Shown here in pieces: positions 1,475 to 37,486 of a stretch of 64,000 nucleotides of DNA. The position numbers and the translations under genes are program-made. Each line of letters opens with the position of its first letter. Position 1 is the stretch's first letter. The stretch comes from a virus. Below the pieces are notes generated by a model that ran no database searches, was not told where the DNA came from, and saw nothing but the letters and a program-made list of their open reading frames with translations. The stretch is taken from the IMG/VR virus record IMGVR_UViG_3300042892_002240, positions 1 to 64,000 of that record; one strand, written 5' to 3'.

Positions 1475-3196
1475 ATGGCTAACTTTCTAAAGTCCCTCTT
1501 TGTTAAGGGGGTCGAAATTGATACAGCCAGTGCAACAACTGGAAAAGTACTCACATACGATGGCACTAAGTTTGCTCCTGCAACCCCTGGTGCGGGTTCT
1601 TTAGCCCTTGACGACCTTTCAGATGTTGCTATTACATCTGTTGCTACAAACCAACTGTTGGTATATAACGGAACTAGTTGGGTAAACACTACTGGTCCTG
1701 TTGGCCCTGCTGGAGCTACAGGTGCTACAGGTGCTACAGGACCAACAGGTCTAACTGGAGCAACGGGTGCTACTGGGCCACAAGGCCCAGAAGGCCCTGC
1801 TGGTATGAATGGCGCAAATGGTTCTAATGGTAATACGGGTCCGCAAGGTGATACGGGTCCGCAGGGAGCAACGGGAGCACAAGGCCCAGCAGGTGCAACA
1901 GGCCCTGTTGCTGGTTCCGCTAATCAAGTTGTTTACAAAGATGGCTCCAACAATCCCGCAGGCAGTGTAAACCTACAATATGACACCTCAACTGGTCTTA
2001 TATTAGAAGGAGACTTAAGAGTTGATGGGGCTGGGATAAGTTCCACAACATTAAAAGTTGATGCTACTAACCATCGTGTGGGTATTGGCAAATACGACCC
2101 TGCTGAAAAACTAGATGTTGACGGCAATATTGCCCTAACAGGTTCAGTTATTTTTGAAGGTGCAACTGCTGACTCTTTTGAAACGACCCTAAGCGTTACT
2201 GACCCGACCGCCGACAGAACAATTACTTTACCTAATGTTAGTGGCACAGTAATTACCACAGGTGATACTGGTTCTGTAACAAGTACAATGATTCTTGACG
2301 GGACTATTCTTAATGCTGATATTAACACCGCTGCTGCTATTGACTTATCTAAACTTGCTTCAGGAACCTCTGCCCAAGTTGTAATTGCTAATGGTTCTGG
2401 TGTACCTACTTATAATAGTCTTACTGGTGATGTAACGGTTACAAACACGGGCGTAACAGCTATTGGCGCAAACAAAGTAACCCGATCAATGTTGGCCGCA
2501 ACAGAACAAATGCCAGTAGGCACCATTCTTATGTGGGCTGGTGGTAGTACTACTACAGCAACTTACACAACTGCTGATGTTCCAACTGGGTTTTTACTTT
2601 GTGATGGTACCGCAGTTTCTCGCACAACATACTTAGACCTATTTACCGCTATTGACATTAGGTATGGTAACGGAGATACTTCAACTACTTTCAACTTACC
2701 TAACCTTATTGCTTTTGCACCAGTTGGTTCTAAAACTGCTTCTGCAAAAACAAATGGTATTCGTGGTACGGCTAATGCCGTTGCTACTAGCTACACAACT
2801 ACCGGAGCTACTTCTGCAACAGCACACCACTCCCACACACTGACTGGCTCAAACTCCACTGCTTCAAACATTGGTATTACTGGTTCAAACTCCACTGCTT
2901 CAAACATTGGTATTACTGGCGCGAATAGTAACATCGCAGATAACCAGCACCGACATACTTACCAAAAGCCAACTTCTAACTACTTTCAAACCGACACTGG
3001 TTTTTCATATGCTATATCTGGAACCAACAGCAACATCGGCCTTGCTGGTTCTAACGCGAGCGCCTCGAACATTGGGCTTAGTGGTAGTAATGCTGCAGCT
3101 TCTAACCTCTCAGCCGCTACTCTAACTTCTGGAAATACAACTGCACATAGCCACACAATTTCTGGCCACGCGGTTGTTTACATCATTAAGTACTAA
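1475..3196 (+). CDS. Tail fibre with collagen-like G-X-Y stretch, tail-collar domain and HxH-containing tip
   Basis: 24 G-X-Y triplets (1694-1909); collar motif [30 protein letters not shown]...[13 protein letters not shown]; HSH/HRH/HSH motifs; ends YIIKY. Confidence 0.85.
1694..1909 (+). repeat. Collagen-like (Gly-X-Y)24 coding repeat
   Basis: [30 protein letters not shown]...GATGPV read from the translation. Confidence 0.9.
2844..2920 (+). repeat. 36-bp near-perfect tandem duplication ([12 protein letters not shown] x2) in fibre tip
   Basis: ctgg(c/t)tcaaactccactgcttcaaacattggtatta twice; degenerate peptide copies continue to ~3110. Confidence 0.9.
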
Positions 3197-3205
3197 GGAT
3201 TACAC

Positions 3206-3928
3206 ATGGCAGATTTTCCTAAAAAACTTCAAGATTTTTCAAGACCTCAAACCATAGGTAAATTCTATAAAAAAATAGGTACAGATGATTCTGTTGGAGT
3301 TTTTAGTTTTACAAGAATGGTTAATCCAAAAAATGCATTAGATGTAGATGTACCAAACGAACAACGTTGTGATGCTCGTTCTAAAAAAGGACCATCTGGG
3401 TTTCATGATTGGGACGCTGAAACAAGTACTTGTAGTTGTGGGTCTACTAATAAACCCTACGGTTTAACACACCATCACTACATTAAGTTTAATCAACTTG
3501 TGTGTATGCACACTGTAATGGATATTCCACCGTGCAGTGTAATTATGTACATGGAATTAAAAAATCCAGAAGATGAAATTAAAACTATTGAAGATTATCA
3601 TCACGAGCACACCAGGACACTCCAAGAATTATTTAGATTAATTATTGAATGGGATTTTGTTTATACAAACTTTAACAATAGAGAAGAAACAGCTATTGTT
3701 TGTAACGAAATTATGTCAAATATAAATATGCCAAGTGAAGTTAAAAACTGGTTTATTGAAGAAATGCCATCAGAAAAAGTTGGTAGGTATTTAGAAGGTA
3801 GCACAGACGCTAGGGTTAGAATTCCTGAATTAATACCAGATCTACCTGATTTTGTAAGTGAATGGTTTTTGACTAAAGTACTCTATAACAACAAGGGTAT
3901 TGGAAAGTACGATAGTTTTGATTCTTGA
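3206..3928 (+). CDS. Hypothetical protein, paralogue A with RCDA..FH.WD..CSCG..HH putative metal site
   Basis: 240 aa; full-length similarity to next ORF (HTRTLQEL.R..IEWD..YT, EK.GR.L.G.T.AR.R, IPDL). Confidence 0.75.
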   Translation: MADFPKKLQDFSRPQTIGKFYKKIGTDDSVGVFSFTRMVNPKNALDVDVPNEQRCDARSKKGPSGFHDWDAETSTCSCGSTNKPYGLTHHHYIKFNQLVCMHTVMDIPPCSVIMYMELKNPEDEIKTIEDYHHEHTRTLQELFRLIIEWDFVYTNFNNREETAIVCNEIMSNINMPSEVKNWFIEEMPSEKVGRYLEGSTDARVRIPELIPDLPDFVSEWFLTKVLYNNKGIGKYDSFDS

Positions 3929-4616
3929 ACCTTCAAAAAAAATAACTGATGGTTACGGTGAAGATAGCCATCCTGGGTACTTTTACCGTAAACAAGGGGT
4001 TGACGACAACAGGGGTTTATTTTGTGTTACCAAGTTTGATGTTATTCCAAAACAATTTTTAGATAATGGTGACTACATCAGATGTGACGCGGGGTACCCA
4101 GGGCCACGTAGTTTTCATTATTGGGATGGCACTGAATGTTCCTGTGGGCTTTCTACCCCTCCTGATCCTTCAACAGGCCACCACATAGTCCATCTTGATA
4201 ACGTTCGAGCATCTCTTCCTGTCATTGACGCCTATCCTTACGGAGCAATTATTTACATTGAATTGCATCCGGAAGAGTTAGAAGACCAGCTAATACTAGA
4301 GCCCCACCACACTAGGACCCTTCAAGAATTACTACGGTATTTAATTGAATGGGATTGGGCGTACACAGAGTTAAATAGCATTGAAGAAATTGCAGTAATT
4401 AGCAATGGGATAGTAAATACTTTAAATATTCCAAATTCTATAAAAGACTGGGTAATTGCCAATGTTCCTGAAGAAAAGTTGGGCCGCTTTCTCAAAGGTG
4501 AAACAAACGCCAGAGAAAGAACAACAAAACAAATACCAGACCTTACCGAAGAGCTTGATGAGTGGTTATACTCAAAAATTAACAAGTGCAGGACATACCA
4601 AGAATTTGGAGAATAA
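3918..4616 (+). CDS. Hypothetical protein, paralogue B (start uncertain: TTG 3900 or 3918)
   Basis: Same motifs as 3206-3928; overlaps the upstream stop. Confidence 0.75.
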   Translation: MILEPSKKITDGYGEDSHPGYFYRKQGVDDNRGLFCVTKFDVIPKQFLDNGDYIRCDAGYPGPRSFHYWDGTECSCGLSTPPDPSTGHHIVHLDNVRASLPVIDAYPYGAIIYIELHPEELEDQLILEPHHTRTLQELLRYLIEWDWAYTELNSIEEIAVISNGIVNTLNIPNSIKDWVIANVPEEKLGRFLKGETNARERTTKQIPDLTEELDEWLYSKINKCRTYQEFGE

Positions 4617-4617
4617 A

Positions 4618-5352
4618 ATGGAAGTGACATTCCCTGCTGGAAAATCAGGAATGATTGCAGTCTACGATGGTTTGCTTGCTGAAAACTGGTGTTCTTCTTT
4701 AATACAAAAACTACAGCCAGTTTATGATTTAATTTCTTTTGATGGCCAAACAATGGATGGTGTGCAAAAAGCAATTAAAAGAACTTCTGACCTACCGTTT
4801 GTAAACATGGAGCTATTAAATAGTAATGGTTTATCGTGGGAGTCTGACTTTAAAAAAGTTGATGAAGCAATTGTTGAAGGTATAAAAACCGCGTTGTCCC
4901 ACTACATGCAACAATACCGATCTCTTCACAGTTTAGTATTTCCGGTTGATTCTGGTTTTAATTTACAACGGTACACAAAAAATGAAGGATTTTATAGAGA
5001 ACATGTAGATTGTGTGCCTTGGGATACCTCTTCAAATAACAGAATCCTTGCAGCAATAGTGTATTTAAACACCGTAGAACACGGTGGCCACACTAACTTC
5101 CCCCTACATGAAGTGTCTGTTGCTCCAGTTGTTGGAAGGATTGTGCTGTTCCCAACGGCATGGACTCACCCTCATGAGGGTTGCCCATCTTTTTCAGAAG
5201 ATCGTTGGTTAATTAATACATTTATCATGTCAGGTCTTGTTGATAGTATTCAACCTAACAACACACCCCTTCCACAAAACAATGACCATGATCATTTTGA
5301 TCCAACGGATGAATTTGAATGGCAAGAAACAGGAGTAGAAAATGGCCAGTAA
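4618..5352 (+). CDS. 2OG-Fe(II) oxygenase (prolyl-4-hydroxylase-like)
   Basis: HVD (HxD), ILAAIVYLN..GG.T.F, G.IVLFP..WTHPH and distal R (EDRW); ATG 4618 after GGAG. Confidence 0.9.
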   Translation: MEVTFPAGKSGMIAVYDGLLAENWCSSLIQKLQPVYDLISFDGQTMDGVQKAIKRTSDLPFVNMELLNSNGLSWESDFKKVDEAIVEGIKTALSHYMQQYRSLHSLVFPVDSGFNLQRYTKNEGFYREHVDCVPWDTSSNNRILAAIVYLNTVEHGGHTNFPLHEVSVAPVVGRIVLFPTAWTHPHEGCPSFSEDRWLINTFIMSGLVDSIQPNNTPLPQNNDHDHFDPTDEFEWQETGVENGQ

Positions 5353-5515
5353 ACCCAAAGCCCAAAGCCCCAATGTACAAGTAGACATTAATAAAGTAAT
5401 TGAGTCCCTTGTAAATCAGATCGCCCAGCAGGCTCAGCGTGTAGCTGTCCTAGAGGCTACAATTGATGCTATACAGAAAGCCCCTAATGCACCTGGTTCT
5501 CAGGAGGAAGAGTGA
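5342..5515 (+). CDS. Small coiled-coil protein (57 aa, not in ORF track)
   Basis: MASKPKAQSPNVQVDINKVIESLVNQIAQQAQRVAVLEATIDAIQK..., AGGAG SD upstream, fills the gap between genes. Confidence 0.7.
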   Translation: MASKPKAQSPNVQVDINKVIESLVNQIAQQAQRVAVLEATIDAIQKAPNAPGSQEEE

Positions 5516-5523
5516 TTGTTCAC

Positions 5524-5715
5524 ATGTACCTTACAAAACAAAATAAGGCTTTGATTGCCTCTTATGCCCGTAGCGTCCTCGGAGCCGCCGTGGCTACCTA
5601 CACAGCTACACAGGACTGGAAGTTGACCCTAAATGCTCTCTGGGCTGCTGCTTTGCCTGTGGCTATGCGTTTCTTTAACCCCAATGACACGGCTTTTGGT
5701 AAAGGTGAAAAGTGA
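5524..5715 (+). CDS. Holin (actinophage type)
   Basis: Two hydrophobic segments, SYARS..GA..A and PV.MR..NP.D.AFG motifs, directly upstream of the endolysin. Confidence 0.75.
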   Translation: MYLTKQNKALIASYARSVLGAAVATYTATQDWKLTLNALWAAALPVAMRFFNPNDTAFGKGEK

Positions 5716-6524
5716 ATTTACCCTTTATTAAACTTGTTGTCCCCACCGCCCTTAAGCAGTATAAGAATGGTCAGTTAGCTGACAGCGTTCTTGCGCCCAT
5801 TAAAACCGGTGGAAAGATGTACGCACCAGTTGCGGCAGAGTTCAACAAGTTGTATGACGCAGCAATTGCCGCTGGTATCAAGCTAAAAAACGTTGGTGAC
5901 TACCGCTCATTCCAGGGTCAGTTAACAATGTTTATGGATCGTTATGTAACCACCGATACTGGTACGGGTGTAACCCGTCAATATGAGGGTAAGACCTGGT
6001 GGTTAAAGAAGGGCAAAGCTCCTTCAGCTGCCCCAGACCCAACTGGCCTTAAGGGTTCTAACCACGGTTGGGGTCTTGCCATTGACCTTGGTTACGACCA
6101 GGGTGGTAAGACCGCTTCGTTTGGTGTAAACGTTCCTGCTTTCCAGTGGATGTGTGCTAACGCCCCCAAGTATGGTTTTTACCTTCAGGGCAATAACCCT
6201 GCTTCTAAAGAGTTTGAAGCTTGGCACTGGCAGTACGCTCTCGGTGACGCTTCACCAGATGGTTCAGCTCAGGCCGCTCCAGCAGCAGCCCCAGCCGCCC
6301 CAGCACCTGCTGGTGGTGGCATGAAGTTTGATTACCCAGGTGCTCCAGTAGGTCTTGGTTCTAAGGGAGTACACGCTTCTTTGGTTCAAGCAATTATTGG
6401 TGCAAAAGCTGATGGTGATTTTGGCCCCAAGTCTGTTGCTTCTCTCAAGGCATGGCAAACTGCTAATGGTCTAACTGCGGACGGCTCCGTCGGTCCTGTA
6501 ACATGGAAGAAGATGTTCGGCTGA
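5712..6524 (+). CDS. Endolysin: M15 (VanY-like) Zn peptidase plus C-terminal peptidoglycan-binding domain
   Basis: YRS..Q, SNHGWGLAID, EAWHW; Ala/Pro linker; ADGDFGP..WQ..NGLTADG.VGP.TW. Confidence 0.9.
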   Translation: MNLPFIKLVVPTALKQYKNGQLADSVLAPIKTGGKMYAPVAAEFNKLYDAAIAAGIKLKNVGDYRSFQGQLTMFMDRYVTTDTGTGVTRQYEGKTWWLKKGKAPSAAPDPTGLKGSNHGWGLAIDLGYDQGGKTASFGVNVPAFQWMCANAPKYGFYLQGNNPASKEFEAWHWQYALGDASPDGSAQAAPAAAPAAPAPAGGGMKFDYPGAPVGLGSKGVHASLVQAIIGAKADGDFGPKSVASLKAWQTANGLTADGSVGPVTWKKMFG

Positions 6525-7356: not shown

Positions 7357-8852
7357 TGGCACTACTCAATAGCTTTACCGGAGCAAGTAGCAGGGCATTA
7401 GGTTTCTCTAATGCTGAACCACCTTCTGCGCCCACCATTAGCACTACTAAAACTGCAACTACAATTACTGTTACGTACACTTTAAACAGCGGTGCGTTCC
7501 CTATTCAAACAACCCAGTACAAACTTGATAGTGGTGCGTTTATTACTATTACAGGTGGGTCATTTACCTTAACAGGTTTAAGTGTAAACACTTCTTACAC
7601 CATTACAATGAGGTCAACTGACCTAGCTGGGCAAACTAGCCTTGAGTCTTCGTCAGTGGTTGTCACCAACACTGAAACTGCACCTTCCGCCCCAGCTTCA
7701 GTTACTGCCAGTTCTAGTTCATCAACTACTTTAAGTATTAACTTTACGGCAGCTACTGCTGGAACATACCCAATTGCTAGTTATCAATACCTTTTGTACA
7801 CAGGTGGTAGCCCTGTTGGTGACTGGGCAACAACTCCTACTGGCCCTGGTGAAACATTTATTCGTAGTAGTTTAACTGCTGATGCCACATACACAGTGTA
7901 TGTACGAGCTATTGCTTCTGTTACAACAACCCCCAGCAGTAACAACCTTGTTACAGCACAAGTTAATCCAGAAACCCCCGCAGCACCTGCATTAAGCTTT
8001 GCTAGCACTAGCAGTAGTGATCGTGCTAACGCTTTCCTTTCATGGGGGGCTGTTTCCTATGCAACGACTTACCATGTATACAGAAACAATGCATATTATG
8101 CAGCAACTAGTTCAACAGCAATGACTGTTGCAGTGTCCCCTGGGTCTAGTTGGATTTTTCATGTGTTTGCTGGAAACAGACTTGGTAATTTTTCTAATGT
8201 TTCTAATTTTAAGTACATGACTACGGGTCAAACAAACGTTGAATACACAAAAAGAAATAATTCAATTAGGTACGTAGCTGACCCAACGTTTAATTATGGT
8301 GGGGATGCGTACAACAGCGATGTTGTGTCAACGGTAACACTTCCAAATATACCTACTAACGACCCAAATACCGCTGGTTACATTTACATAAATTCTATGG
8401 GTGCAACTTTTGCGTGGATGCAGGCACCTGGAATTGCTGGAACACCTAGCTACACAACTAGTAAATATTCAGCAATTTATTCTTTTGCTGGTTCAGGTAG
8501 AACTACGGCTTGGAAAACAGATGCAACACTTTCAGGAAATGGTTGGGGTAGTGGTTTTAACACGACCAACATTAGTGGAACTAACGCAATCAACAAAGCT
8601 CTAGGAGACAACTACTTTTGTTATATCTCTACTGGGGGAACCGCTCTTAGCGGTAAAAGATTCTCTGTTGCTGCTTTAGGTGCAAGTTGGAGTTCTTTAT
8701 CGTCTGCTCCAGACCCCAATGATGCAACACAAAGCTACGGCACACTGATTGGGTACAACGCCGGGTCTTTTGAAACCGTCTACGCATACGCTTTAATCAT
8801 GTCTTCTTTATACGTAGAGGGCTACCAAACTACAGCAACTACCTACGCTTAA
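7356..8852 (+). CDS. Fibronectin type III repeat virion protein
   Basis: About three FN3-like units (PSAP..., L..NTSYTITMRS, L.ADATYTVYVRA) plus a C-terminal beta domain. Confidence 0.75.
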   Translation: MALLNSFTGASSRALGFSNAEPPSAPTISTTKTATTITVTYTLNSGAFPIQTTQYKLDSGAFITITGGSFTLTGLSVNTSYTITMRSTDLAGQTSLESSSVVVTNTETAPSAPASVTASSSSSTTLSINFTAATAGTYPIASYQYLLYTGGSPVGDWATTPTGPGETFIRSSLTADATYTVYVRAIASVTTTPSSNNLVTAQVNPETPAAPALSFASTSSSDRANAFLSWGAVSYATTYHVYRNNAYYAATSSTAMTVAVSPGSSWIFHVFAGNRLGNFSNVSNFKYMTTGQTNVEYTKRNNSIRYVADPTFNYGGDAYNSDVVSTVTLPNIPTNDPNTAGYIYINSMGATFAWMQAPGIAGTPSYTTSKYSAIYSFAGSGRTTAWKTDATLSGNGWGSGFNTTNISGTNAINKALGDNYFCYISTGGTALSGKRFSVAALGASWSSLSSAPDPNDATQSYGTLIGYNAGSFETVYAYALIMSSLYVEGYQTTATTYA

Positions 8853-18291: not shown

Positions 18292-19635
18292 ATGCCCTAT
18301 GTAGTTCCTAATGCTGTTGATACAGTAACTAACCCCAAGTACCTCACTCTTGATCAAGCCGAACCAGATTCACTTGACTTTGAGGTACTTGGGGATAACA
18401 CTACTGGTGTAATTTTTGATTGTGAAGTTACATCCGCTATTGGTGGTCTGGCAGTAGACGTTAACGCTGGGGTAGTTTTGTTAAAAGGCACTGTTTATAC
18501 AGTGCAAACAAACCCCGCCTTGGCACTTTCAACTGGATTGAGTGCAGACCCCGCATTTGAACTAGTTGTGGCTAGATTAACTAGTGGCGTAATGGTCCCG
18601 ACAGTTTTGCTTGGTACCTCTAGTGCTACAAACCCAGCTTTTCCAACTTCGTTAAGTAGTAGCATTACTACTTCTGCGTCGTCGTTTAACCCCGCTACAG
18701 ATGTTTTGTTAGCAGCAGTTTACCGAAGTGGTAGCACGGCTATTACCGAAAAGAACATTGTTGACAAACGTAAACTAGTGCAAACTGCTATCCCTTATCG
18801 TTCTTCTAGTGCACCTTTAACTACCGATGGCAGCCAAGGTGACTTGTACTTTCGTACAGGAACTTTGCCTAATGGAGAATCTGGCCTTTACGTTAAAAAG
18901 GATAGTTCTACCTGGGTCCAGCTTGCAACAGCACCTGTGTCTCCTGGAGTGCCTATTGGTACTGTAATTACCTGGATTGTATCTACACCACCAGACGCTT
19001 CTCTATGGCTTGAATGTAATGGTACTACTGCATCTATTAGCACATATCAAACTCTTTCTGACTTGCTTGGTACCACTTACGGTCCAAAAGATGTAAACAC
19101 TTTTACACTTCCTAACTTTGCAGGAATGTATTTAGCTGGACAGCCGTCTTCAGCTTCTGCTGGAGTAATTGGAACAGCGGATGGCAATGTAAACCATGAA
19201 GTTAAATTGGTTTCAAATAACTTGCCTTTACACCAACACGGCATTGACCATGGCCACGCAGGTGGATCTACTGGCAACGCTGGTGGCCACGACCATGGTA
19301 CCGGTGTTACTGGCGAGGACTTTGCAACACGTCGTCAGACCTACGCTGAAGCTGGTACACAGCGATATGTAGCTCCTACCGACTCTGGTGGCCTTACAAC
19401 ACCTTCAGATGGTTTTGCTGACAAGTATGTACTTGCTGCCGGTGAACTACCTATTCAAGGTATGTCTATGTTTTGGGTTGAAAAGACTGCTTTTCAACCA
19501 GACCATGCTCACACTAATGTCAGTGTTCCAACTACTAGTGGATTACTGTCTGCTGCGGCTGGTTTAACTACACCAATTGCAGTAGATATCCAACCTCGGA
19601 CAATGTACGTAAAGTATTACATTAGGGCGCTATGA
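18292..19635 (+). CDS. Tail-collar domain fibre protein
   Basis: PIGTVITW...WLECNG...Y..L..LLG.TYG....FTLPN; HQH/HGH/HDH/HAH motifs; ends YYIRAL. Confidence 0.8.
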   Translation: MPYVVPNAVDTVTNPKYLTLDQAEPDSLDFEVLGDNTTGVIFDCEVTSAIGGLAVDVNAGVVLLKGTVYTVQTNPALALSTGLSADPAFELVVARLTSGVMVPTVLLGTSSATNPAFPTSLSSSITTSASSFNPATDVLLAAVYRSGSTAITEKNIVDKRKLVQTAIPYRSSSAPLTTDGSQGDLYFRTGTLPNGESGLYVKKDSSTWVQLATAPVSPGVPIGTVITWIVSTPPDASLWLECNGTTASISTYQTLSDLLGTTYGPKDVNTFTLPNFAGMYLAGQPSSASAGVIGTADGNVNHEVKLVSNNLPLHQHGIDHGHAGGSTGNAGGHDHGTGVTGEDFATRRQTYAEAGTQRYVAPTDSGGLTTPSDGFADKYVLAAGELPIQGMSMFWVEKTAFQPDHAHTNVSVPTTSGLLSAAAGLTTPIAVDIQPRTMYVKYYIRAL

Positions 19636-36642: not shown

Positions 36643-36942
36643 TCAGCAGTCCCAAGCACGAAGAGATTTGTTAATACGAGAATCTGGGTCATTAGCTGTC
36701 TTGGCTGAAGTATTCTTCTTCTTCATACCTTCCATACGTGCACAAAAAGACTCACGACGTGCTGCTGACTTTTCAGACTTAGCTGCTTGTTCTTTTTTCA
36801 CCGGAGGCTTGAGGTTGCTGCCCGGGTTTGCCTTTTCATAAGACTTGCGTCCCTTTTCATTAAGACCACCCTTAGGGTCCTTGCCTTCGGCACGAGACCA
36901 AGCGGCTGTCTTTTTTGCTGGGGCTTTTTTCTTTGCTGCCAT
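36643..36942 (-). CDS. Basic conserved phage protein (DUF6321-like)
   Basis: W.R.EGK.P.GGLN.KGR.SY, RR.SFCARM.G, SRINKSLRAWDC; AAGGAG SD. Confidence 0.75.
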   Translation of the reverse strand: MAAKKKAPAKKTAAWSRAEGKDPKGGLNEKGRKSYEKANPGSNLKPPVKKEQAAKSEKSAARRESFCARMEGMKKKNTSAKTANDPDSRINKSLRAWDC

Positions 36943-36952
36943 ATTGGCTCCT

Positions 36953-37387
36953 TTATTTGGTTGAGGCCCGAAGTTGCCAGGACCATTTATTGTGGTTGTC
37001 AATGCGATCAGCAAGGAAATTCATAATTCCTTGTTCGTCTTTCTTTTGAGCCTCATCAAATGCTTTTTTAAGAGATTTAAGAAGGGCTTCATTTGCCGTC
37101 AACAGGGACTTGGCCATTGCTTTTGGATTAGGTTGTACATCTTTAAAATCAAGGGTGCGAAGATCTAAGAACTTTTGCAGGCTAAATGGAGCGTAATCGT
37201 CAAGTTTACGAATGTTTTCTGCAATTAGGTCAATTGACCCATAGGCATCTTCGTAGATTTCTGAAAACAAAGCGTGATATTGGCTAAAATCAGAACCTTC
37301 TACATTCCAATGGTATCCATGGGCCATAAAGTAAAAAGTGACTACATCTGAAACAAGCACTTTGAGAGCTTTAACAAGGGCTTCCAT
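36953..37387 (-). CDS. dps: Dps family ferritin-like protein
   Basis: HWNVEG.DF...H.LF.E.YE, D.IAE.IR.L, H.K..W.L; AGGAG SD. Confidence 0.92.
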   Translation of the reverse strand: MEALVKALKVLVSDVVTFYFMAHGYHWNVEGSDFSQYHALFSEIYEDAYGSIDLIAENIRKLDDYAPFSLQKFLDLRTLDFKDVQPNPKAMAKSLLTANEALLKSLKKAFDEAQKKDEQGIMNFLADRIDNHNKWSWQLRASTK

Positions 37388-37398
37388 TTTGTCTCCTA

Positions 37399-37486
37399 CA
37401 AAAATACTGGGGTATGTGAAGTATACCCCACACACCCCAGCGTTTTGTAAAAACGCCAGGCTGAAGAACCACCAACTAACCTGGCA
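37399..37486 (-). ncRNA. Candidate structured leader/small RNA upstream of dps
   Basis: Three stems on the minus strand with G-U pairs; the last (15-16 bp) is followed by UAUUUUU; preceded by TTGTAA-18-TATACT. Confidence 0.5.

Follow-up and report, generated by a model that had tools for sequence, protein, structure and literature searches.

In bacteriophage T4, gene 38 lies directly after gene 37 and encodes the chaperone of the gp37 fibre tip. A comparable arrangement is described here from the first 64 kb of the IMG/VR virus record IMGVR_UViG_3300042892_002240 (positions 1 to 64,000; this whole stretch of DNA is called the window), where the gene of a collar-type tail fibre is followed by the genes of two related proteins, A and B, and of a prolyl 4-hydroxylase (P4H)-like 2-oxoglutarate (2OG)-Fe(II) oxygenase. 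Oxygenases of this kind are among the commonest unexplained genes of aquatic phages and are currently filed as auxiliary metabolic genes. We found that protein A and the oxygenase are firmly tied to a single type of fibre tip, the maturation of which they may serve.

The T4 gp37 system (chaperones gp38 and gp57A; structure 2XGF) shares with this locus the collar-needle tip, the HxH motifs on both arms of the needle and the accessory gene directly after the fibre. It differs in that A has no detectable sequence similarity to gp38 and gave no fold match in the searches made, in that no oxygenase is present in the post-fibre slot of T4, and in that the loop Y-F-K-P-N-S-G is specific to the present group. 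The gp38 adhesin of T2 and S16, which caps the gp37 needle, is likewise a protein of roughly 230-260 amino acids (aa) encoded after a needle fibre, and the conserved needle tip might be a docking site. However, A varies less than the fibre tip, it is without glycine-rich hypervariable segments and no homology between the two was detected. The closest solved relative of the fibre C-terminus is gp34 of cyanophage A-1(L) (8KEC; phmmer E-value 0.004, Z-score 9.2), the arm domain of which was described as gp37-like and receptor-binding (PMC10966104), but its tip reads HAH-G-V-P-F and not Y-x-K.

The known P4Hs (Bacillus anthracis 5iax/3itq, PBCV-1, Chlamydomonas) and the cyanophage family phrog_61 resemble the oxygenase of the window in the PF13640 fold, the HxD...H motif and the basic 2OG residue. 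There are differences too: a conserved collagen-type X-Pro-Gly site is absent, and the oxygenases of the module, unlike the known P4Hs and phrog_61, are often His/Asp-tailed and have the A family and a single type of fibre as obligate partners. Tail-collar and collagen-like proteins were predicted by Iyer et al. 2010 to be substrates of co-encoded bacterial dioxygenases (PMC2938197). Those operons also encode a Collar protein together with a 2OG dioxygenase, but they are cellular, their enzymes are of the beta-hydroxylase or phytanoyl-CoA-hydroxylase types and they include sulfotransferases, whereas the present module is carried by phages, is of the P4H type and contains a new protein family. 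No sulfotransferase was found with Pfam among the ten genes between positions 24 and 8852 of the window. In the literature no paper was found that describes the triad of fibre, A and oxygenase, or the A family.

Gene order and co-occurrence

The source record has a length of 92.5 kb, was rated complete by CheckV and belongs to a contractile-tailed phage, in which the terminase, portal, major head protein and tail sheath genes are recognisable. The four-gene block closes the tail-fibre gene region and stands directly before the lysis cassette. Its features are the following.

1475..3196, + strand: tail fibre, 573 aa; its N-terminal part is followed by a collagen-like run, the Collar domain and a C-terminal needle, with VVYIIKY as the end strand
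1694..1909, + strand: collagen-like G-X-Y run, residues 74-145 of the fibre (Pfam PF01391), optional in the module family
2519..2710, + strand: core of the phage tail Collar domain, residues 349-412 (PF07484)
2948..2989, + strand: central tip loop of 14 residues, the window's version of HxH-x-Y-F-K-P-N-S-G; candidate docking or modification site
3206..3928, + strand: protein A, 240 aa, of an uncharacterised family; R54-C55-D56, H67/C76/C78/H91 and a helical C-terminal half with RTLQELFRL.IEW
3900..4616, + strand: protein B, an old paralogue of A; likely start TTG at 3918 behind GGAAAG
4618..5352, + strand: P4H-like 2OG-Fe(II) oxygenase, 244 aa (PF13640); its ATG at 4618 lies inside a 4456-5352 open reading frame (ORF); short DHDH tail

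An earlier interpretation of this DNA, made from the letters and called here the sequence-only reading, had described a fibre followed by three tightly coupled genes; all four ORFs are present where it had placed them and the junctions are indeed tight. As read from the sequence, the TAA of the fibre is separated by 9 nucleotides (nt) from the ATG of A, and an AAGGA overlaps the fibre stop. The TTG start of B lies inside the 3' end of A, while a single base stands between the TAA of B and the ATG of the oxygenase, which is preceded by GGAG. No terminator-like sites were found within the four-gene block. The same reading had called the three downstream genes AT-rich. This holds strongly for A, the GC content of which (0.328) is the lowest of any 700-nt segment of the 64 kb (mean 0.439, standard deviation 0.034), and more weakly for the other two genes, the oxygenase being at 0.388 (4th percentile) and B at 0.401 (12th percentile).

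The co-occurrence of these genes was followed in 237 loci from IMG/VR and the JGI metagenomes, which were annotated by local hidden Markov models of the three parts (A family, oxygenase, Collar domain) and then dereplicated. Two forms of the A family can be distinguished. The short forms (about 210-305 aa, like A and B) contain R-C-D and then H...C-x-C-G...H, while in the long forms (340-390 aa) the Cys/His cluster is absent; common to both are only the C-terminal two thirds, including a near-invariant RT.xELFRLIxEW helix. The oxygenase was immediately downstream of A in 34 of the 37 dereplicated short-form modules, and a Collar fibre with 3-12 HxH motifs was immediately upstream in 32 of the 37 (32 of the 35 evaluable). 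Two of the exceptions lacking the oxygenase, L018 and L022, are long-form genes called short, and the third is L047. None of the 14 long-form modules had the oxygenase; the long forms follow other large fibre-like proteins, some of them with fn3 domains.

The linkage was tested also in reverse, by an exact scan of IMG/VR for the tip-loop pattern H-x-Y-[FT]-K-P-N-[SA]-G. Thirty loci were obtained, including contigs that the A-based search had missed, and A and the oxygenase directly followed the fibre in all of the 29 evaluable ones, the thirtieth being cut by the contig end. The forward and reverse counts together mean that A, the oxygenase and the tip loop are linked whichever of them the search starts from, fibre or A, and the expectation of a fibre-linked module is borne out. 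One oxygenase clade is tied in both directions, in dozens of independent contigs, to a short, highly conserved loop of a receptor-binding tip, a linkage that would give viral oxygenases lacking an assigned role a concrete candidate target.

A rule of one A paralogue for each HxH fibre was also considered, the window having two of each, and was dropped, because the copy numbers of fibre and A disagree: L088 has three fibres and one A, while in L011, L089 and L091 two A accompany three fibres.

The fibre tip and the oxygenase

In the fibre of the window the Pfam Collagen profile matched residues 74-125 (E-value 6e-13) and the Collar domain scored 55.9 bits against a cut-off of 24 (E-values 4e-15 and 5e-17). 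Three HxH motifs are present, at residues 452, 492 and 558. In a monomer model of residues 336-573 the Collar was predicted with a pLDDT (predicted local distance difference test) of 82-96 and the last strand (model residues 233-237) was also confident; since the needle reached only about 40-55, the Collar portion alone was used. The model matched A-1(L) gp34 (8KEC; Z 9.2, root mean square deviation (rmsd) 5.9, 101 aligned residues, 32% identity), T4 gp12 (1OCY; Z 9.0, rmsd 3.0, 75 aligned) and T4 gp37 (2XGF; Z 7.3, rmsd 5.3, 71 aligned), and hardly anything besides, with just 9 chains at a Z of at least 2. By its model, then, the fibre ends in a collar-needle tip of the T4 gp37/gp12 type.

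The 33 related fibres adjoining A carry 3-12 HxH motifs each and share a constant architecture, which consists of the Collar, a descending HxH series, a central loop, an ascending HxH series and a final hydrophobic strand with an IIK or IIR end. The descending repeats have a period of about 11-13 residues, and SN..IG repeats partly substitute for them in some fibres, including that of the window. The SNxxxSN repeats are degenerate needle repeats standing in place of HxH units, and it is the central tip loop that tracks the module. This loop, HxH-x-Y-F-K-P-N-S-G-A-N-N-N-T-G-G-(4)-HxH, was found in 29 of the 33 fibres directly upstream of A, and where three fibres stand in a row, as in L011 and L089, it is confined to the A-adjacent one. 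If gp37 is taken as the homologous guide, the distal tip of the fibre would lie midway along the needle excursion.

Collagen-like runs, counted from at least 6 G-X-Y triplets, are present in just 4 of the 33 directly adjacent fibres and absent from the other 29. The closest relatives of the window, L001 and L004, have no collagen, yet their A, B and oxygenase are still 86-95% identical to those of the window. The conserved partner of the module is accordingly the T4 gp37/gp12-like collar-needle tip and not collagen. The sequence-only reading, which had offered collagen as a substrate, had itself cautioned that Pro occupies only the X position; the count agrees with the caution (Pro 10 times in X and 0 times in Y, no Lys in Y) and the collagen substrate is not upheld.

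A second Collar protein is encoded in the window at 18292-19635 (+), between the major head and tail sheath genes. It has 447 aa, 4 HxH motifs and the end YYIRAL; it is without the Y-x-K tip loop and no A or oxygenase gene adjoins it.

The assignment of the third downstream gene to the P4H-like oxygenases was confirmed by the PF13640 profile (55.2 bits, cut-off 27), and its best solved relatives are the Bacillus anthracis P4H structures 5iax and 3itq (E-value about 2e-6). The iron triad H129-x-D131...H186 is intact and aligns with that of the B. anthracis enzyme. Across 33 distinct modules no variation was seen in these three residues or at about 20 further positions, and the basic residue that would bind the C5 carboxylate of 2OG, which follows the distal His as it does in P4Hs, is R196 in the window and K in the other oxygenases (six aligned). 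As judged from these residues, the enzyme is catalytically intact and under purifying selection. A His/Asp-rich C-terminal tail (e.g. DHDHPHDH) is present in about 24 of the 33 oxygenases and missing in about 9. The nearest cultured relatives are cyanophage 2OG-Fe(II) oxygenases of about 30% identity, which have no assigned function.

A sister clade of the oxygenase (about 35-39% identical) has no A and follows HxH or collagen-like fibre fragments. In loci L131-L138, L146 and L147 (e.g. L134:261-8259) it belongs to cassettes that also encode a tryptophan halogenase (PF04820, E-value 8e-102) and a further two 2OG oxygenases (PF13640, PF13759); the fibre-like protein that precedes the cassette of L134 has 1123 aa and contains 14 HxH motifs as well as two G-X-Y runs. 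Within the A-containing modules a family-2 glycosyltransferase follows the oxygenase in L002 (11428-12246), where the upstream fibre is a collagen-rich protein of 1509 aa, and a PA14-domain protein follows it in L003 (11409-12281).

Proteins A and B

A and B are paralogues over their full length, with 41% identity over 222 residues (E-value 6e-54), as the sequence-only reading had recognised. It had also placed them in no known family, and this was sustained. No match to A or B was found in Pfam, PHROG or NCBIfam at E-values up to 0.01, and neither protein matched the family profiles of GP38, Tfa/Caudo_TAP and S74 in sequence. The PDB profile search yielded nothing beyond a chance match (E-value 0.53). 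The AlphaFold2 model of A (pLDDT 92.9, predicted template modelling score 0.91) shows a small N-terminal sheet with long loops, packed against a helical C-terminal half. The Foldseek comparison which had been proposed for A gave no match in the PDB at E-values up to 0.001, and an exhaustive VIA-align comparison with 48,161 chains reached a best Z of 3.5, with RRM-like chains. The matches in BFVD were three uncharacterised proteins of uncultured Caudovirales only, and in the ESM Atlas there was no usable match.

The motifs quoted earlier for the two proteins (RCD, FH.W, CSCG, HH and RTLQEL.R..IEW) are present and conserved in the A/B family, and in an alignment of 11 sequences C55, H67, W69, C76, C78 and H91 are invariant. 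In a wider alignment of 47 sequences the invariant residues are C55 and E148, while R54, D56, Y115, E141, W149 and W220 are nearly so. H67, C76, C78 and H91 are retained jointly in 34 of the 37 closer sequences (3 of those substitute H91) and are all largely missing in the ten most divergent ones. From this conservation and co-variation the four residues are a putative structural zinc site, and we infer that the residue set centred on RCD is the functional core of A.

An exhaustive profile search (E-value up to 0.001) gave 206 representatives of the A family at 50% identity. The family thus defined is found in phages only, comprises at least 206 clusters, matches no solved fold and always stands beside host-recognition genes. 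None of the members tested carried a Pfam domain, and no fused, longer forms of A were found. When A was compared by tblastn with 50,697 phage records, zero matches were obtained, and for a typical tip fibre the sole match was to the S-CAM7 Collar domain; by these searches the module is carried by no isolate. Two scans of 185,579 prokaryote genomes with narrow peptide patterns gave no short- or long-form relative. The long forms often stand as tandem pairs (L016, L023, L028, L034 and L038; e.g. L038:4630-9017) and adjoin upstream fibre-like proteins of 600-730 aa with a common N-terminal MAIEV..GSSWQ, some with fn3 domains. In L016, L018 and L038 the next gene after the long forms encodes 557-558 aa, and in L016 this gene is that of a portal.

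A single copy of the A family is present in 30 of the 37 short-form modules. Two separate clades appear in the maximum-likelihood tree: one (support 98/98) holds A, the singleton L002 and the first copy from each of L007 and L069, the other (96/94) holds B, the singletons L003 and L055 and the second copy from each of L007 and L069. Since the A-type and B-type clades each hold singletons, the tree indicates that the A/B duplication is old and that each type can function without the other; besides it, at least two duplications are independent. An obligate A/B heterodimer, as had been suggested, is therefore unsupported.

Evolutionary rates were compared in 460 related module pairs, which are mutually non-independent. 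A was more conserved than the fibre C-terminus in 342 pairs and less in 105, and it was more conserved than the oxygenase in 337 and less in 117. A is hence the slowest-evolving of the three genes, and its being slower than the fibre tip argues against a host-range adhesin and fits a chaperone or an enzyme partner. In the pairs L218/L225, L069/L070 and L063/L103 the A proteins are 82-99% identical and the oxygenases 46-63%, which points to recombination breakpoints between both genes and to swapped oxygenase alleles. The N-terminal portions of the fibre also differ between related modules. Parts of the block are therefore exchanged between phages, in agreement with the proposal of an exchangeable module.

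A possible fibre-tip maturation module and its alternatives

We favour the reading, to which we give an even chance of being right, that the block is a fibre-tip maturation module, with A as a tip-specific assembly factor or adaptor and with an oxygenase that hydroxylates the fibre tip. The fibre chain would leave the Collar, run down a needle of HxH (metal-binding) or SN repeats, turn at the conserved loop, and run back up to complete the Collar with its last strand. A, here together with B, would act from the gene-38 position as an accessory factor of the tip, either an assembly chaperone or an adaptor which holds the tip. It is a compact protein, its long loops probably pinned by the putative Cys2His2 zinc site, and its separate invariant core (RCD, Y-x-E, RTLQE, EW) is common to relatives serving other fibre types. 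The coupled oxygenase would act on the fibre as it assembles, hydroxylating Lys, Pro or Asn, most likely within the tip loop. We infer the binding of A to the tip, the action of the oxygenase on the fibre and the residue that would be modified. The narrower proposal, in which a Lys, Pro or Asn of the distal loop is hydroxylated while A, as a zinc protein of new fold, holds or presents the tip, is tentative, possible though somewhat short of probable. Tip hydroxylation, if true, would to our knowledge give the first enzymatically hydroxylated receptor-binding protein of a phage, and the first substrate class for the abundant 2OG-Fe(II) oxygenases of marine and freshwater phages. If the tip is modified, host-range prediction from the fibre sequence alone would overlook a chemical layer.

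Several observations weigh against this reading. A nearly identical A (99%) can stand beside a strongly differing oxygenase (63%), which argues against a tightly co-evolved A-oxygenase complex. Related oxygenases exist without A, while in L047, the only such case, an A gene with the zinc site (7626-8339) lies in a 115-kb record (55% complete) where neither oxygenase nor Collar was found; this A gene is convergent, tail to tail, with the gene of a 699-aa fibre which carries an S74 intramolecular chaperone domain. No fusion of A with the oxygenase, or of the fibre with A, turned up, although this is weak evidence. In the tip loop itself about a third of the fibres have S, A, G or T where the others have Pro, so that a prolyl target is not universal, and KP, which had been considered as such a target, was dropped; four adjacent fibres have merely a degenerate loop. 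Finally, the gp34 arm of A-1(L) was made alone in E. coli and bound host cells (PMC10966104), which means that a need for A or an oxygenase is not general among such needles.

The gene-38 position of A after a gp37-like needle would also suit a gp38-like distal adhesin or cap, docked on the needle tip and carrying host specificity, in which case the two paralogues would provide two specificities and either the cap or the fibre would be the substrate of the oxygenase. The conserved tip loop resembles a docking site for a separate cap and paralogue pairs arose repeatedly, but A is the slowest of the three genes and exceeds the fibre C-terminus in conservation in most of the pairs compared, its strongest motifs are common to long forms after unrelated fibre types, and neither the GP38 family nor any solved adhesin was among the matches. 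We consider a cap unlikely for these reasons. The collagen-type prolyl hydroxylase, which would stabilise the collagen-like triple helix of the fibre, is highly improbable. It can draw on the 72-residue G-X-Y run of the window fibre, on the bacterial collagen-type P4Hs as best solved relatives of the oxygenase and on L002, where A, the oxygenase and the glycosyltransferase come after a collagen-rich fibre of 1509 aa; the rarity of the runs, their absence from L001 and L004 with A, B and the oxygenase retained, and the lack of Pro and Lys from the Y positions in the window contradict it.

Metal might be the purpose instead: Fe(II) or Zn, taken up by A and the oxygenase, would be passed on to the HxH motifs of the needle, hydroxylation being secondary or absent. 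The 3-12 HxH motifs of the adjacent fibres, the His/Asp tails of most of the oxygenases, the joint conservation of H67, C76, C78 and H91 of A and a ferritin/Dps-like protein encoded by the same phage speak for this. We nevertheless hold it to be improbable, since every catalytic and 2OG-binding position of the oxygenase is strongly constrained and about 9 of the 33 enzymes have no His tail, the window fibre has a full module with only 3 HxH motifs, co-occurrence follows the tip loop and not the HxH count, the needle arm of A-1(L) was made alone in E. coli (PMC10966104), and the loss of the zinc site en bloc from some A-family members that keep the invariant core suggests a structural site. Were the module to load metal, it would bear on phage fibres as a sink for scarce iron. 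There is lastly the reading in which the pair acts on a target other than the fibre (the host envelope, another virion protein or a small molecule) and owes its position to late co-regulation or to a recombination hot spot. The cultured-cyanophage oxygenases of about 30% identity do occur in non-fibre contexts, and the related clade shares its cassettes with other oxygenases and tryptophan halogenase, a combination assigned to secondary-metabolite pathways by Iyer et al. 2010 (PMC2938197). However, the near-perfect two-way linkage to one tip type and the coupled translation are hard to explain without a shared function, which makes such a target very unlikely compared with the fibre tip that we favour.

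Some other genes of the window deserve mention. The ferritin/Dps-like protein (PF00210, E-value 9e-17) is encoded at 36953-37435 on the minus strand, adjoining a DUF6321 protein (36643-37014, minus strand), and represents iron handling in a phage with HxH fibres and an Fe(II) enzyme. The lysis region directly downstream of the block (5342-6524, +) consists of two small ORFs of 57 and 67 aa and the endolysin (VanY/PG_binding_1, 5712-6524, +). This endolysin is met again after the module in L004 and L011, and of these L004 also has the 67-aa ORF.

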